A stretch of 64,000 nt of DNA from a virus. Lineage: Duplodnaviria; Caudoviricetes. The translations under genes and the position numbers were made by a program. Numbering within the stretch: position 1 is the first letter of the stretch; each line of letters starts with the position of its first letter. Below, piece by piece: positions 24,344-43,181 of this stretch. The DNA is taken from IMG/VR virus record IMGVR_UViG_3300013936_000023, positions 10,757 to 74,756 of that record; one strand, 5' to 3'. The notes under the pieces were generated by a model. The model searched no databases. It was given only the letters and a program-made list of their open reading frames with translations, and was not told where the DNA came from.

Positions 24344-24879
24344 CCCGTGTACTTTATACCCCTTGCGCCTTGCGTGTGCGTGTGCGGCCTCTCAGAGCCA
24401 TTTACAGCGGTTCACGCTATGCCTTGCCAGTTGCTATGTATGCAGCGGGCTTTTCATTGTGCTCTGCGCTTTACTATGGTAGCATGACAACATACACAAG
24501 CGGAGTGAATATCCAAACCGACATTCACTTTACCACAGTAACACAGCGGCATGACAACGTGATAAAACCTACCTGTTAGATGGGTTGATTCTGCCAGCGA
24601 TATAGTCTTGTGCGCACGTCAATTACGGATTGCGTCATTTTCGCCAGATATACCTATTGCGTTAGTGTGTTTATGCAGCAGCTCGGTCTGTCCAGCTCTC
24701 CTTGCGTTACTCGTGCAAACGGATTTGCCGCAGCGTCTCTCACGTTACCTCTCATGCGCGTTTCGCCCGCGATATGGATATAGTATATGCTGGCGGCTAA
24801 CATGGCTCAGAGCGGCCTTTAATTGTCTTGGCGGCATGGTTTATGTCCACACAAGGCTTGGCCTCAATAAAATTCATAC

Positions 24880-24908
24880 TTGACAAGTTCGTTTGGTTGT
24901 GCTATGCT
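24880..24908 (+). promoter_or_regulatory. sigmaA promoter
   Basis: TTGACA-N17-TATGCT. Confidence 0.55.
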
Positions 24909-25292
24909 CGCATTAAGTAAATAGAAGAGACAGGTATCTATTGACTCATCGTTTAATAGATTAATAGATGTACACGCAGCTCAATGCCAAATGCGTGTAG
25001 AATCTAAATAAACAATCAGCAAATCAAAGCCGATTTGCAACGCCATGGCTCAATTGGTATATGGATGCACCCAAAGCAATTCTTTACTAAATTGATTCGA
25101 TTTTACCATTGTTTATGTTGTGTTTTGCTTTCTAATAATATTGCGATTGACATTACGATTGCATGGATGCAATGAATCAAAAAATGAAAATTGACGTGTG
25201 AGCTGTGAAACGAGATTTGATTTTTCTCTTTTGGAAAATTGAAATTAAAACGGCGATTCAAAAATTTGAATTTAAGAAATGGGGAATGGAAT

Positions 25293-25979
25293 TTGAATGT
25301 AAAGATTCTAATGCCGGAGGTAAATCCAAAATCGTTTATTGACGATTACCTCTACAAAATGGGAATTGAATATCCGCAATCCTATATGAATGTATGGCGA
25401 AGTCATCTGGAAGAACCGAATCGATATTTGAATATTGATGAGGCAACCAGTCGGCTAAACCAAGCAATCAGGAATGCCGAATGCGTGGGCGTTATCCAAG
25501 ATTGTGATGTTGATGGGCTATGCTCAGCGGTCATTGCCTATCAATTTCTAAAATCGAATGGCGTAGAGCCAATTGTATTTTTCCATTCAGGCAAGCAGCA
25601 TGGTATCAACGACCTGATGCCGCAAATCAAAGATGCAAATTTGGATTTGCTTATTGTTCCGGACGCAAGCGGGAAAGCTGAAGAATGTAAGACGCTGAAA
25701 GATAATGGTTGTGATGTAATCATAGCGGACCACCACGAATACGATTTCGATTCAAATCCATTTGCAATTATTGTGAATTGTAAGCAACAAGAAACGACAA
25801 ATCAAAAAGCCAGCGGCGCATTAGTGATGCAAAAAATCGTGGACAGATTTTACGAAAGATATGACGGCAAGAAAGAAAATGACTGTGGAGATTTGGTTGG
25901 GTTGTCAATCCTCAGTGATTCTATGAGTGTTCTTGAAATTGAAAATCGAGCATATCTAAACATAATGATGAGAGGCTGA
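25293..25979 (+). CDS. recJ: RecJ-like ssDNA exonuclease, N-terminal (DHH) fragment
   Basis: DCDVDG, HGIN, IVPDA, ADHH, SGA and SDSM motifs of the DHH family. Confidence 0.8.
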   Translation: MNVKILMPEVNPKSFIDDYLYKMGIEYPQSYMNVWRSHLEEPNRYLNIDEATSRLNQAIRNAECVGVIQDCDVDGLCSAVIAYQFLKSNGVEPIVFFHSGKQHGINDLMPQIKDANLDLLIVPDASGKAEECKTLKDNGCDVIIADHHEYDFDSNPFAIIVNCKQQETTNQKASGALVMQKIVDRFYERYDGKKENDCGDLVGLSILSDSMSVLEIENRAYLNIMMRG

Positions 25980-25984
25980 TTCTA

Positions 25985-26500
25985 ATGGCACACTTTAATA
26001 AACGATATAATCGCTATGATTTAAGCGGAGATTATGGCGTTGGTTACACCAGTAAAGGTGAAGAGTTTTATTTTGATTTAGAAGACTACGATAAAATTAA
26101 AGATTATTGTTGGGTAATTTCAAAAACCACGGATACCGTTTGTGCCAGAATGTGCGGAACGAATAAGTTAATCGTAATGCACCGTCTCGTTATGGACGTT
26201 GTAAATGCTGGTCGCAATGTTCAGGTTGACCACATTCATCACAATCGCCACGACAACAGAAAATCGGAATTGAGAATCTGTAATAATTCTCAAAATTCTA
26301 TGAATAAAGGTTTACAATCAAACAATACGTCGGGAGTTGCTGGCGTAAGCTGGGATGAGAAAGATAAACTTTGGCACGCATATATCCAGAAAAATCACGA
26401 AAGAACATCGAGATGGTTTAAGAATTATGACGATGCCGTTGCATGGAGATTGGAAATGCAAAAGAAAATTTTTGGAGAATATGAATATGTTGAGCATTGA
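25985..26500 (+). CDS. HNH-AP2 homing endonuclease inserted in recJ
   Basis: MHRLVM...VDHIHHNRHDNRKSELR...SGVAGVSW...AVAWR. Confidence 0.85.
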   Translation: MAHFNKRYNRYDLSGDYGVGYTSKGEEFYFDLEDYDKIKDYCWVISKTTDTVCARMCGTNKLIVMHRLVMDVVNAGRNVQVDHIHHNRHDNRKSELRICNNSQNSMNKGLQSNNTSGVAGVSWDEKDKLWHAYIQKNHERTSRWFKNYDDAVAWRLEMQKKIFGEYEYVEH

Positions 26501-26545
26501 GAATCGAGCATATTTGAATTTGGGATTTGGAGGAGGTTGGCCAAA

Positions 26546-27493
26546 ATGACGAATGGGTTTTTGAACCTCTGCGTTGAAAAGAAACTCGGCAAGAAGCCGC
26601 TCGTTCCCCACAACCTAAGCTTCAGCCTCATTCCCTATCTCAACGCCGTCTGCCGCTCTAATAATCAAGATGCAAAACGGGCGCTGTTTATGGCGTTTGC
26701 TAAAGGCGAGAATGAAGCTGAAGCCCTCAAGCAGATGAATGCGGCATATCGTGTCCAGCGCGAGACGATGACGCGCATGGTTGAGGAGTTGAGCCGACAA
26801 GCAGATGGTCAAGTTGAGCGCGGCGACAAGATTTTGTTCGTGCGCATGGCGAATGATGACAAAGAATATGGTGGGCTTGCGGCAAACAAATTAAAATCCA
26901 AATATGGGCTTCCCGTGGTTTGTCTGCGGGAGGCCGACCCAAACAACTGGTCTGGCTCTGTGCGTTCGGATTGCGACACACTGGATGCCATGAACGTAAC
27001 GGGGCTGGCCAAATGCCAAGGTCATAAGAGCGCACATGGCATCATGGTACGCAAAGCCGTGTTTGATGAATTTCGCGCATGGGCAAATGAGCAAGATTGG
27101 AATCCGCAAGAGCTGACGGCAACTGCCGAGCTGACCGTAGATGATATTACACTTGAGCTTTGCGAGCTGCTGGATAGCTCGGCATGGCTTTGGGCTAACG
27201 ATTTGCCAGCGCCGACATTCTATTGCAAATTTGAAATTCCGCGTGGCGCAAGCGTGCTATGTGGAGCTGCTGGCAACTGCTTCAGATATACGCCGTTCAT
27301 CAAATTTGGATGCAATGAGCGCGAGGTTGAGCGGCTGACGGCAGACCATGCTCGTACTATCGAGGCGATTGTTGAGCTGACGGTCAACGAGTACATGGGC
27401 GTTCGTTATCCTCAAGCGCGTATTGTAGATTGGGAAATTCATGTTGAACAGCCGCAGGAAGAAAATTTTGATTTTGGTGCAATTTTTTCTTGA
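26546..27493 (+). CDS. recJ: RecJ-like exonuclease, C-terminal (DHHA1/OB) fragment
   Basis: LIPYLNAVCR, GLAANKL, WSGSVRS, GHKSAHG; new SD GGAGGAGG 9 nt before ATG 26546. Confidence 0.8.
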   Translation: MTNGFLNLCVEKKLGKKPLVPHNLSFSLIPYLNAVCRSNNQDAKRALFMAFAKGENEAEALKQMNAAYRVQRETMTRMVEELSRQADGQVERGDKILFVRMANDDKEYGGLAANKLKSKYGLPVVCLREADPNNWSGSVRSDCDTLDAMNVTGLAKCQGHKSAHGIMVRKAVFDEFRAWANEQDWNPQELTATAELTVDDITLELCELLDSSAWLWANDLPAPTFYCKFEIPRGASVLCGAAGNCFRYTPFIKFGCNEREVERLTADHARTIEAIVELTVNEYMGVRYPQARIVDWEIHVEQPQEENFDFGAIFS

Positions 27494-27518
27494 CAAGCGC
27501 GATGGTGTGTGTTATATT
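27490..27518 (+). promoter_or_regulatory. sigmaA promoter
   Basis: TTGACA-N17-TATATT. Confidence 0.6.
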
Positions 27519-27550
27519 TTAATCATCAACTAAAGCAAAGGAGATTTAAG

Positions 27551-28453
27551 ATGGACATTAAGGAAATTCTTAAAAAGCATAAGATGTGGCTTAACAACGA
27601 GATTGGTGGAAAGCGAGCAAACCTGCGTGATGCAGACCTGTGGGGTGCAGACTTGTGTGGCGTAAACCTGCGTGATGCAGACCTGCGTGGTGCAAACCTG
27701 CGTGGTGCAGACCTGAGTGGTGCAAACCTGTGGGATGCAGACCTGAGTGGTGCAGACCTGTGTTGTGCAGACCTGCGTGGTGCAAACCTGCGTGGTGCAA
27801 ACCTGCGTGGTGCAAACCTGTGGGATGCAAGCCTGCGTGATGCAGACCTGCGTGGTGCAAGCCTGCGTGATGCAGACCTGCGTGGTGCAAGCCTGCGTGA
27901 TGCAGACCTGTGTGGTGCAGACCTGCGTGGCGTAAACCTGCGTGATGCAGACCTGTGGGGTGCAGACTTGTGTTGTGCAGACCTGTGGGGTGCAGACCTG
28001 TGTTGTGCAGACCTGCGTGGTGCAGACCTGCGTGATGCAGACCTGCGTGGTGCAAGCCTGCGTGGTGCAAACCTGCGTGGTGCAAAAAACCTCGATAACG
28101 TTACATGGTCGATTTATACGGCATTTTATCCGCTTCAGTGTCCAGAAGAAGGAGAGTATATCGCATGGAAAAAGGCTCATGGCAAGATTGTCAAACTTAA
28201 AATTACGGAATCAGCAAAGCGTTCTTCTGCAGTATCTCGAAAATGTAGGGCAAGCGAAGCATTGGTTCTTGACATCCAATCTATTGACGGAATGGAACAT
28301 CTTGAATCGGTTGCAAGTGATAGAGATTCTAATTTCATCTATCGTGTTGGCGAAATTGTTCGAGTAAATGATTTCGACGAAGATAGATGGAATGAGTGCT
28401 CGACTGGAATTCATCATTTTATCACTCGTGAAGAAGCTGTGAAATACAACTAA
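27551..28453 (+). CDS. pentapeptide-repeat protein with DUF5758-like C-terminal domain
   Basis: A(D/N/S)L(R/W/C/S)(G/D/C) repeats; C-terminal KCRAS...FDEDRWNECSTGIHHF. Confidence 0.85.
   Translation: MDIKEILKKHKMWLNNEIGGKRANLRDADLWGADLCGVNLRDADLRGANLRGADLSGANLWDADLSGADLCCADLRGANLRGANLRGANLWDASLRDADLRGASLRDADLRGASLRDADLCGADLRGVNLRDADLWGADLCCADLWGADLCCADLRGADLRDADLRGASLRGANLRGAKNLDNVTWSIYTAFYPLQCPEEGEYIAWKKAHGKIVKLKITESAKRSSAVSRKCRASEALVLDIQSIDGMEHLESVASDRDSNFIYRVGEIVRVNDFDEDRWNECSTGIHHFITREEAVKYN
27617..28085 (+). repeat. 15-bp tandem coding repeat
   Basis: About 30 units of GTGCAGACCTGCGTG-like sequence. Confidence 0.9.
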
Positions 28454-41037: not shown

Positions 41038-41186
41038 AAAAAAAGTTCTTGACAACGGCATCTGGATGCGATATAATCTATAATAGAGGTTGAGATAAGG
41101 TTGCAAACTTTCTCATTTAGGACAACGTGCTTACTCCGCGTTGTCCACTCTAATAAAAATTTCTTGAGTAAGGAGAATGTAAGATG
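41038..41186 (+). repeat. ~150-bp direct repeat copy 1: promoter plus HEG leader RNA copy C
   Basis: TTGACA(41049)-N17-TATAAT; near-identical to 42380-42527. Confidence 0.85.
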
Positions 41187-41747
41187 GAAGAAATCTGGAA
41201 AGATGTTGTTGGATATGAGGGTTTATACGAGGTAAGTAATCTTGGTAATGTGCGTAGCTTGTTTCGGTACAAGAAACAACTCAAGTGGAACGTCTTGAGT
41301 TCTGGCTATGCGACTGTTCAACTTTTCAAAGAAAAAGTTGGTACAAGATTGCTTGTACATCGACTTGTCGCCAAGGCATTCTTACCCGATCCAGATGGAT
41401 TACCGGTCGTCAACCACAAAGACGAAAACAAATTAAATAATAGCGCGGACAATCTTGAGTGGTGTACTCAACAGTATAACTTAGCTTATAACGACGGGCA
41501 TAGAAAAAGAGCCGACAACACGCGCTGGTTCTATGATGAAATGCGTGTAAGGTTCAAAGAAAATAATCCCGCTATAAAATTGCCAGTCGTTCAGATGAGT
41601 TTGTCTGGCGAATTTATAAAAGAATGGCCAAGCGCCAAAGATGCAGTTGTTGCGCTTGGCTATAAATCAGACCATATCTGTGAATGTTGCAAAGGGAAAC
41701 GAGAGACATCTAATGGATTTAGATGGAAATATAGGGAGGTAATTTAA
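41184..41747 (+). CDS. NUMOD4-HNH-NUMOD1 homing endonuclease
   Basis: EEIWKDVVGYEGLYEVSN; VHRLVA; VNHKDENKLNNSADNLEWC. Confidence 0.85.
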   Translation: MEEIWKDVVGYEGLYEVSNLGNVRSLFRYKKQLKWNVLSSGYATVQLFKEKVGTRLLVHRLVAKAFLPDPDGLPVVNHKDENKLNNSADNLEWCTQQYNLAYNDGHRKRADNTRWFYDEMRVRFKENNPAIKLPVVQMSLSGEFIKEWPSAKDAVVALGYKSDHICECCKGKRETSNGFRWKYREVI

Positions 41748-42394: not shown

Positions 42395-42527
42395 CAAAAG
42401 CATCCGGATGTGATATAATCCATAATAGAGGTTGAGATAAGGTTGCAAACTTTCTCATTTAGGGCAACGTGCTTACTCCGCGTTGCCCACTCTAATAAAA
42501 TTTCTTGAGTAGGGAGAATGTAAAATG
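42380..42527 (+). repeat. ~150-bp direct repeat copy 2: promoter plus HEG leader RNA copy D
   Basis: TTGACA(42391)-N17-TATAAT; compensatory GGGCAACG/CGTTGCCC. Confidence 0.85.
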
Positions 42528-43181
42528 AGTGCTCTGAAAGATTTAACTGAGAAACGCTTTGGAAAGTTGATCGTATTACGTAGGAGTGGCAATGATAAAC
42601 ATAAGAATGCGACGTGGTTGTGTCAGTGCGATTGTGGAAACAGATGTAATGTCGTAGGTGCAAATCTTTGGCGAGGCGATACAAAGTCTTGCGGATGTTA
42701 TAAGAAAACCAATAAATACGAAGAAGATGGGGCCGTAACAAGAATCCATCTCACGAATGGCTCTGTTGTGTTAGTTGACACCGAAGATGTTCCTAAGATA
42801 TCAATGTACCAATGGAGTATCGCACGTGGATATGCCGTAGCAACGATTAACAATAAAACAACATCTATGCATCGACCAATAATGGACGCCAAAGACGGAT
42901 TTGTTGTTGACCATATCAATCATAACGAGCTTGATAACAGGAAGAGTAACTTGCGCGTGTGCACTCAAAGCAATAACGCCATGAATCGTAAAAAGGCAAG
43001 CAATAACACGTCTGGATATATAGGTGTCGTGTTTAAGAAAGATTGTGGTAAATGGGAGGCATTTATTCGAGTTGACAAGAAGCGAAAATATTTAGGGTTA
43101 TTTGAAACGCCAGAGCTTGCTCACGAAGCTCGCAAAGAAGCCGAAGAAAAATATTTTGGTGAGTTCGCCTATCAAGGCTAA
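42525..43181 (+). CDS. HNH-AP2 homing endonuclease
   Basis: CQCDCG..SCGC; VVDHINHNELDNRKSNLR; SGYIGV..WEAFI..LGLFETPELA. Confidence 0.85.
   Translation: MSALKDLTEKRFGKLIVLRRSGNDKHKNATWLCQCDCGNRCNVVGANLWRGDTKSCGCYKKTNKYEEDGAVTRIHLTNGSVVLVDTEDVPKISMYQWSIARGYAVATINNKTTSMHRPIMDAKDGFVVDHINHNELDNRKSNLRVCTQSNNAMNRKKASNNTSGYIGVVFKKDCGKWEAFIRVDKKRKYLGLFETPELAHEARKEAEEKYFGEFAYQG

Follow-up and report, generated by a model that had tools for sequence, protein, structure and literature searches.

How a phage gene comes to lie in two pieces around a homing endonuclease gene (HEG) is the question raised by a 64,000-nucleotide stretch of phage DNA (hereafter the window), part of the 74,756-bp IMG/VR virus record IMGVR_UViG_3300013936_000023. 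Here a gene for a RecJ-like single-stranded DNA exonuclease is divided into two coding regions on the plus strand, recJ-N and recJ-C, with a free-standing HNH-AP2 HEG between them and a short piece of recJ-N coding sequence present on both sides of the HEG. An earlier note on this DNA had proposed that the HEG split recJ and brought with it a recoded copy of the segment that it displaced. Our analysis points to a different history as the probable one, in which an already split recJ was invaded by a cassette about 20 codons before the recJ-N stop codon, and in which the second copy of the repeated piece, next to recJ-C, is the native recJ-N tail that the cassette displaced.

The DHH half, recJ-N (25293-25979, frame 0), starts at a TTG at 25293 or an ATG at 25311 and stops at a TGA at 25977-25979; its product terminates in ...SVLEIENRAYLNIMMRG, the C-terminus reading ...SDSMSVLEIENRAYLNIMMRG before the TGA. 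The end of this gene, VLEIENRAYLNIMMRG with the stop codon (25929-25979), is the first member of a DNA repeat recognised by reading the sequence, and is called copy 1 below. Only 5 non-coding nt separate the recJ-N stop from the HEG (25985-26500, frame 2, 171 amino acids), and a GAGAGG within copy 1 (25970-25975), 9 nt before the HEG ATG, is probably the Shine-Dalgarno sequence (SD) of the HEG. Frame 0 is open again at 26481-26549 as MNMLSIENRAYLNLGFGGGWPK followed by a stop, a stretch that contains a second IENRAYLN and is out of frame with the C-half. From 26487 to 26549 this stretch, MLSIENRAYLNLGFGGGWPK with the stop, is copy 2, in the frame of the N-half, and the last four codons and the TGA of the HEG come from this resident recJ-N DNA. 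Copy 2 represents a possible mini open reading frame (mini-ORF) of 20-22 codons whose TGA overlaps the ATG of recJ-C (26546-27493, frame 2, 315 codons), and this ATG lies 9 nt downstream of the recJ-C SD GGAGGAGG (26529-26536), embedded in the repeated tail. Between 25938-25960 and 26496-26518, spaced by 558 nt, 20 of 23 bases are identical, and all four differences between the copies in the eight codons for IENRAYLN are synonymous. The HEG, copy 2 and the start of the C-half recur base for base in seven contigs from other samples (L100-L102 and L104-L107), so the arrangement is not an assembly artefact; a further contig, L103, carries the same HEG and stops before copy 2. Among GenBank phages, no blastn match to 25200-27500 was obtained. 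Every statement of the earlier note on the layout of the split recJ, the HNH-AP2 gene and the repeat was verified, except that the SD of recJ-C was new.

As that note had also stated, the two halves cover RecJ once, since the N-half matches positions 15-228 and the C-half positions 239-559 of PHROG 2484 (RecJ-like ssDNA exonuclease, 564 positions). In Pfam, the N-half matched DHH (4e-12), and the C-half, which comprises the end of the DHH fold, DHHA1 and an OB-like domain, gave weak matches to DHHA1 and RecJ_OB. The DHH motif residues D64/D66/D68, D118, D140-H141-H142 and D203 are invariant in the N-half alignment, and the order typical of RecJ-like DHH/DHHA1 proteins, DHH motifs I-IV followed by a DHHA1 domain with GH..A.G, was found, with the DHHA1 match being weak. 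A fused homologue of 548 aa (P0001) matches the Thermus RecJ structure 1ir6 at 1e-19. The break falls directly after the ENR motif, within the catalytic domain. As predicted from its sequence, this RecJ-like enzyme must function as two chains, which would assemble into an active exonuclease, in support of the two-chain enzyme that had been proposed.

We found that the two-gene form of recJ exists without the nuclease. When 1.8 billion representative proteins were searched with the C-half, many fused proteins of 540-570 aa were obtained along with stand-alone C-halves of ~290-330 aa that share the same first residue (among them P0006, P0007, P0008, P0009, P0012, P0026, P0031 and P0053), P0006 being 74% identical to the C-half of the window; homologues of 311-329 aa belong to this stand-alone group. 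In the HEG-free loci L003-L007 (P0006), L009 (P0008) and L008 (P0007), a DHH N-half is followed directly by a C-half, and in every nuclease-free relative whose DNA was read the stop codon of recJ-N overlaps the start codon of recJ-C, by ATGA in L003 and by 8 nt in L009 and L008. Stand-alone N-halves form ~90 protein clusters, ~80 of which end like copy 2 in ...SDSRSMLSIENRAYLNLGFGG.. and a stop, the GGAGG included; the IMMRG ending of the window is confined to its own cluster and to P0159 and P0160. The L003 N-half ends ...SDSRSMLSIENRAYLNLGFGGCAK, and its DNA from ATGTTGAGC via GGAGG to AAAATGA is almost the same as that of the window at 26487-26549, the GGAGG being equally placed in L003 and L090. 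Because copy 2 matches both the 3' end of recJ-N in HEG-free L003 and the endings of ~80 clusters, it is the ancestral tail of the resident recJ-N.

These results overturn the proposal that the insertion split recJ in this phage. The earlier note had itself named HEG-free relatives split at the same point as grounds for abandoning its reading, and such relatives were looked for and found in L003-L007, L008 and L009, beside the ~90 clusters of stand-alone N-halves. Nor is the SD of recJ-C new, given that the same SD is present in HEG-free relatives. By this comparison, a two-gene recJ natively couples its halves through the GGAGG SD, the ATGA overlap and the -1 frame offset, none of which was made by the insertion. 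An 11-nt insertion carrying the SD (26529-26539) was considered as the cause of the frame shift between copy 2 and the C-half and was rejected, as HEG-free relatives share the same -1 overlap. Programmed -1 frameshifting that would yield a fused RecJ is also unlikely: the overlaps differ by clade (AAAATGA, ATGAATAA and GTGAATGA) and have no slippery heptamer in common.

If copy 2 is native, copy 1 requires another origin. By blastn, the alignment of the window with HEG-free L003 ends at 25787 and restarts exactly at 26487, directly after ATGAAT. Four-way sliding identity in 80-nt bins (window, L003, L083 and L090) revealed a block at ~25660-26539 that is related to the other sequences in a different way from either flank. 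At 25660, L090 drops from 94% to 62% identity with L003, and the window climbs from 80% to 96-100% identity with L083, a level kept across 25660-26059. L090 and L003 are 85-97% identical on both sides in most bins and 52-62% identical in 25660-25899, L003 having no counterpart of the HEG. For the window against L090, identity is 81-92% within 25660-26539 and mostly 54-86% elsewhere. The same mosaic was observed in the protein: residues 1-130 of the window N-half reach up to 85-100% identity to L003-type proteins, whereas residues 131-180 are 55-65% identical to L003-type and 75-90% identical to L009-type proteins. Judged by these profiles, the recJ-N product is chimeric, with residues 1 to ~130 of the resident type and the remainder foreign, and the foreign 3' third of recJ-N (25660-25979, the left boundary placed at ~25660 +/-40 nt), which includes copy 1 and a new stop codon, is together with the HEG a mobile cassette of ~830 nt (~25660-26486).

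The tail of copy 1, NIMMRG, of the type NI(A/M)MR, resembles the L009-type tails (NIAMRMCYYE, ...ENRAYMNIAMRMCYYE); in tails of this type, the equivalent stretch precedes the start of the C-half and an embedded GAGG serves the next gene. In HEG-bearing relatives, the stop codon of the HEG overlaps the C-half start ATGAATGA (MN.FL...). The ATGAAT of the window (26481-26486, Met-Asn) is probably a relic of the donor recJ-C start and would mark the right end of the cassette. The idea of a recoded substitute copy thus stands in one part, in that copy 1 did arrive within the cassette, but its recoding is not a device: the synonymous differences are most simply explained by divergence between the donor recJ-N and the resident gene, without any need for purposeful recoding. 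Incidentally, these differences limit exact matches between copies 1 and 2 to 12 nt. With the naive target disrupted on both sides of the HEG, the cassette could thereby be immune to self-cleavage, and the suggestion that the recoded copy protects the target from cleavage is plausible.

The HEG matches PHROG 99 ('HNH endonuclease', 3.6e-30) and carries the sequence VDHIHHN..DNR..LR..N..N; it combines an HNH nuclease motif with a DNA-binding module. It has its own start and stop codons outside any intron or intein, and it is sporadically distributed with mosaic flanks, being present in the window and L090, reduced to a remnant in L083 and absent from L003-L007. A sequence search of the PDB with the HEG product returned nothing meaningful. 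Its closest relatives with readable context, P0256, P0257 and P0260 (60-66% identity), come from diverged phages (L091-L096), where each occupies the exact junction of a DHH N-half and a RecJ C-half, and the HEG tree places them with the window HEG in a supported clade of 12. In L091 and L093, the HEG has stop/start overlaps with both of its neighbours; the L095 HEG overlaps recJ-C only and starts 124 nt after recJ-N. None of the HEG-bearing loci L091-L096 contains a duplication. The window cassette lies 60 nt upstream of the true recJ-N/recJ-C junction, which is why the old tail survives there as a duplicate. More distant HNH-AP2 genes stand directly upstream of the C-half in L098, L099 and probably L097, those of L098 and L099 falling outside the main clade of the recJ junction. 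Among 73 IMG/VR loci with HEG relatives of <=55% identity, a recJ-like match was present within 3 kb in three and at the junction in none.

Other sequences around HEGs were also recorded. In the 124 nt upstream of the L095 HEG (L095:2377-2500), a promoter close to consensus, TTGACA...TGGTATAAT, and a hairpin, GGAGAGATA/TATCTCTCC, precede the SD, a layout that recalls how T4 endonuclease genes are controlled by a promoter and a hairpin. A promoter-like TTGAAA-16-CATAAT also occurs within copy 1 (25939-25966), just upstream of the window HEG; promoter-like sites in this region are no more frequent than in shuffled sequence, and this site corresponds to chance expectation. Elsewhere in the window, an HNH-AP2 paralogue at 42525-43181 is 38% identical to the recJ HEG and, together with an endonuclease-like gene of 187 aa at 41184-41747, flanks an ORF of 210 aa. 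The N-terminus of the 41184-41747 product is, we presume, similar to NUMOD4/HNH_3-type proteins.

The same cassette is present in three phage backbones, those of the window, L090 and L083, which differ from one another by 15-35% of their DNA in most 80-nt bins. L090 consists of an L003-like backbone with the cassette and copy 2, the latter kept with three synonymous changes and an in-frame codon indel. In L083-L089 and L108, four unrelated small ORFs stand between recJ-C and a left part made up of the foreign N-tail and the first 29 codons of the HEG. At L083:3836-4988, the body of the HEG and copy 2 are replaced by these four ORFs (81, 74, 74 and 143 aa), the last of which has a stop codon overlapping the recJ-C ATG, and the recJ halves in this lineage have come to lie 1.3 kb apart. 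The recJ site has therefore been hit at least twice.

From these observations we infer the following order of events. In this gut-phage lineage, the RecJ-like exonuclease naturally comes from two translationally coupled genes, the recJ-N tail (...MLSIENRAYLNLGFGG..K and a stop) holding the SD of recJ-C and the TGA of the tail overlapping the recJ-C ATG. A HEG resident at the recJ-N/recJ-C junction of an L009-like phage would then have entered an L003-like phage, with the left join formed by homologous crossover within the conserved block ending LLIVPDA. The right join, at 26486/26487, would have been non-homologous, so that the resident tail was pushed downstream and not replaced, giving rise to the 13-codon repeat. 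Copy 1 would be translated as the new end of the N-half, with the ENR motif kept, and the HEG would use the SD within the foreign tail, while the copy 2 relic would still provide the SD and the ATGA overlap that keep recJ-C expressed. The synonymous differences between the copies would reflect the divergence of donor and recipient under purifying selection. Flanked by homology arms, recJ-N to its left and copy 2 together with recJ-C to its right, the cassette could home into other L003-type phages, which fits its presence in three backbones.

Several points weigh against this history. A donor with the IMMRG tail, the HEG and its own C-half, free of any duplication, was not found: a search of IMG/VR with the foreign N-tail segment, like one with the C-half, returned no related loci, and a metagenome scan with the N-tail segment had an L083-type contig as its sole match. 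Given that no donor phage was found, the first, illegitimate event can only be inferred. The Pfam matches of the HEG to HNH_3 and AP2 are weak and under the curated cut-offs, and the activity of the enzyme and its cut site are predicted. In addition, only two independent lineages carry the HEG with copy 2 (window and L090), so that selection on the mini-ORF is inseparable from repeated homing into different recipients.

Other accounts of the same locus were weighed against the invasion of an already split gene. That the HEG entered an intact recJ in this phage, split it, provided the C-half with a newly made SD and start codon and delivered deliberately recoded codons would agree with the occurrence of fused recJ genes in other phages, with a HEG standing between two coding parts and with the synonymous differences between the copies. 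However, the closest HEG-free relatives are already split there with the same SD, ATGA overlap and copy 2-type tail, the HEG lies upstream of the true junction, and the cassette is clearly secondary in three backbones, which makes this account very unlikely. We consider it extremely unlikely that 25929-26486 is an intron, or the HEG an intein, whose splicing restores an N-half ending ...SDSMS-MLSIENRAYLNLGFGGGWPK. The distance between the copies is a multiple of three, they share a frame, and excision would give a native-like tail; yet cmscan of 24500-28000 at E<=1 gave no relevant Rfam match, group I and group II introns included, the space between the N-half stop and the HEG start is minimal, copy 1 retains IENRAYLN codons and a stop codon that an intron would not need, and the foreign tract reaches 270 nt upstream of the supposed splice site. 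The HEG is read in a frame other than that of recJ-N and has its own SD and ATG, and is therefore not an intein; the earlier description of the HNH-AP2 gene as a free-standing, non-splicing insertion holds. A crippled recJ, that is, a decaying locus whose chimeric N-half has lost the ability to pair with the C-half, is suggested by the replacement of the native nine-residue end LGFGGGWPK with IMMRG and by the distance between the halves in the L083 lineage. This, too, is improbable, considering that both ORFs are intact with conserved catalytic DHH residues, that the arrangement persists in the three diverged backbones and in further assemblies, and that the window and L083 still have C-halves of 87-92% identity.

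A broader alternative concerns the family and not the window: HNH-AP2 HEGs may originally have made, and may still spread, the split recJ, with homing bringing the flanking stop and start signals into fused genes, in which case HEG-free splits such as the L003 type would reflect loss of the HEG and the window would represent a re-invasion. We regard this as a serious possibility, though one that falls somewhat short of even chances. On a C-half tree (15 split and 57 fused rows), the two states interleave, with six changes between them, at least three of which are forced by well-supported branches, and a HEG or its remnant is located at the junction in 8 of 11 distinct split loci with readable context, a count that includes the L083 remnant and leaves out L097, whose 51 upstream nt do no more than suggest a HEG C-terminus. 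The first 42 aa of split C-halves are closer to other split forms than to their nearest fused kin, and the MN.FL start shared by split forms hints at a cassette origin at the family level, whereas in the window the N-half stop is cassette-derived and the C-half SD and ATG are native. The split, HEG-bearing L091 and the fused P0050 are ~97% identical over their first ~35 and last ~200 residues and 35-40% identical in a central block of ~1 kb with the HEG at its centre; between their C-halves, the head is 27% and the body 74% identical. This pattern may tentatively be taken as the expected trace of a fused gene having been co-converted from a split donor through the action of a HEG; its direction is unproven, and the exchange could equally have been a re-fusion. 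Against HEG-driven splitting at the family level stand the tree itself, which is unrooted with many weak branches and leaves the direction of each change unresolved, the position of the L098 and L099 HEGs outside the main clade, and the fact that context was read for only a minority of split forms. More tentative still is the full scenario in which HNH-AP2 HEGs create and spread a two-chain RecJ, fused genes are repeatedly split at the same codon, the split outlives the HEG, the window reflects an out-of-register re-invasion, and the mini-ORF at 26481-26549 is translated as a relay that couples translation of the HEG to that of recJ-C. For the window, invasion of an already split recJ by the cassette remains our preferred reading.

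The flanks of the locus hold further features. Upstream of recJ-N, a strong promoter-like TTGACA-17-TATGCT with a TG (24880-24908) is followed by ~380 nt without a convincing ORF, and 24880-25292 could form a long leader, where L003, L083 and L090 align at 55-90% identity. After recJ-C, a gene for a pentapeptide-repeat protein with highly repetitive DNA occupies 27552-28453; the length of its product varies among otherwise near-identical contigs, the products called there, which overlap the ends of the loci, measuring 300 aa for L100 and 290 aa for L101.

Collectively, these findings document that a large family of phage RecJ-like enzymes is encoded by two overlapping genes with the break inside the catalytic DHH domain, that a clade of HNH-AP2 HEGs resides exactly at the junction of these genes, and that a cassette of ~830 nt swaps the end of the upstream gene while moving between backbones. 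Our literature search found no description of any of the three and no paper on a split phage recJ. Both the duplicate and the supposedly new ribosome-binding site remain from an older recJ of two genes, which corrects an attractive earlier reading. Fused, split, split-with-HEG and HEG-replaced alleles in public metagenomes provide a natural series on whether selfish nucleases cause lasting gene fission. For the switch from one form to the other, fused P0050 and split L091 offer a clean comparison found in nature.

Among known systems, the closest case by analogy is seg43(25) of Aeromonas phage 25, a free-standing HEG between the cistrons of a split gene 43 (DNA polymerase), a gene for an essential-type enzyme. 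A related phage has gene 43 split without any HEG, so that seg43(25) probably arrived after the split; an enzyme is still formed from the two chains (PMC2988022). The recJ locus likewise combines a free-standing HEG between two cistrons with a gene that is split in HEG-free relatives, and it differs in having an HNH-AP2 instead of a GIY-YIG seg enzyme, a RecJ-like exonuclease instead of a polymerase, and a HEG that lies within the upstream cistron, 60 nt from its end, where it brought a foreign tail as a replacement and left the old one as a duplicate. In Aeromonas phage Aeh1, mobE made the split in nrdA, and related phages have an uninterrupted nrdA (PMC2988022). The window shares with that case an HNH-type free-standing HEG in a conserved catalytic region, two polypeptides to reassemble and no intron or intein. 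Its nearest HEG-free relatives, by contrast, are already split, and the mobE/nrdA-type split put forward in the earlier note does not apply. The T4 topoisomerase gene, with mobA and the gene 60 bypass element (PMC2988022; bioRxiv 10.1101/2022.08.31.505936), offers another HEG that travels as a cassette with extra sequence altering the adjacent host gene; there the extra sequence is a translational bypass element, and here it is foreign but homologous coding DNA that ends in a stop codon. Intronless homing by T4 SegF and SegG leads to marker exclusion and co-conversion of flanks (PMC2988022), and in the window, too, flanking DNA appears to have moved with the HEG, ~320 nt of recJ-N, leaving a mosaic gene. 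In the T4 cases, both flanks recombine by homology and nothing is duplicated, whereas the right join of the window leaves a duplicate. Free-standing HEGs in phage genes-in-pieces are a known kind, and by these analogies the window locus fits their logic; what is new is the RecJ target, the HNH-AP2 clade tied to RecJ and an insertion out of register that swapped the tail and left a duplicate behind as a relic.

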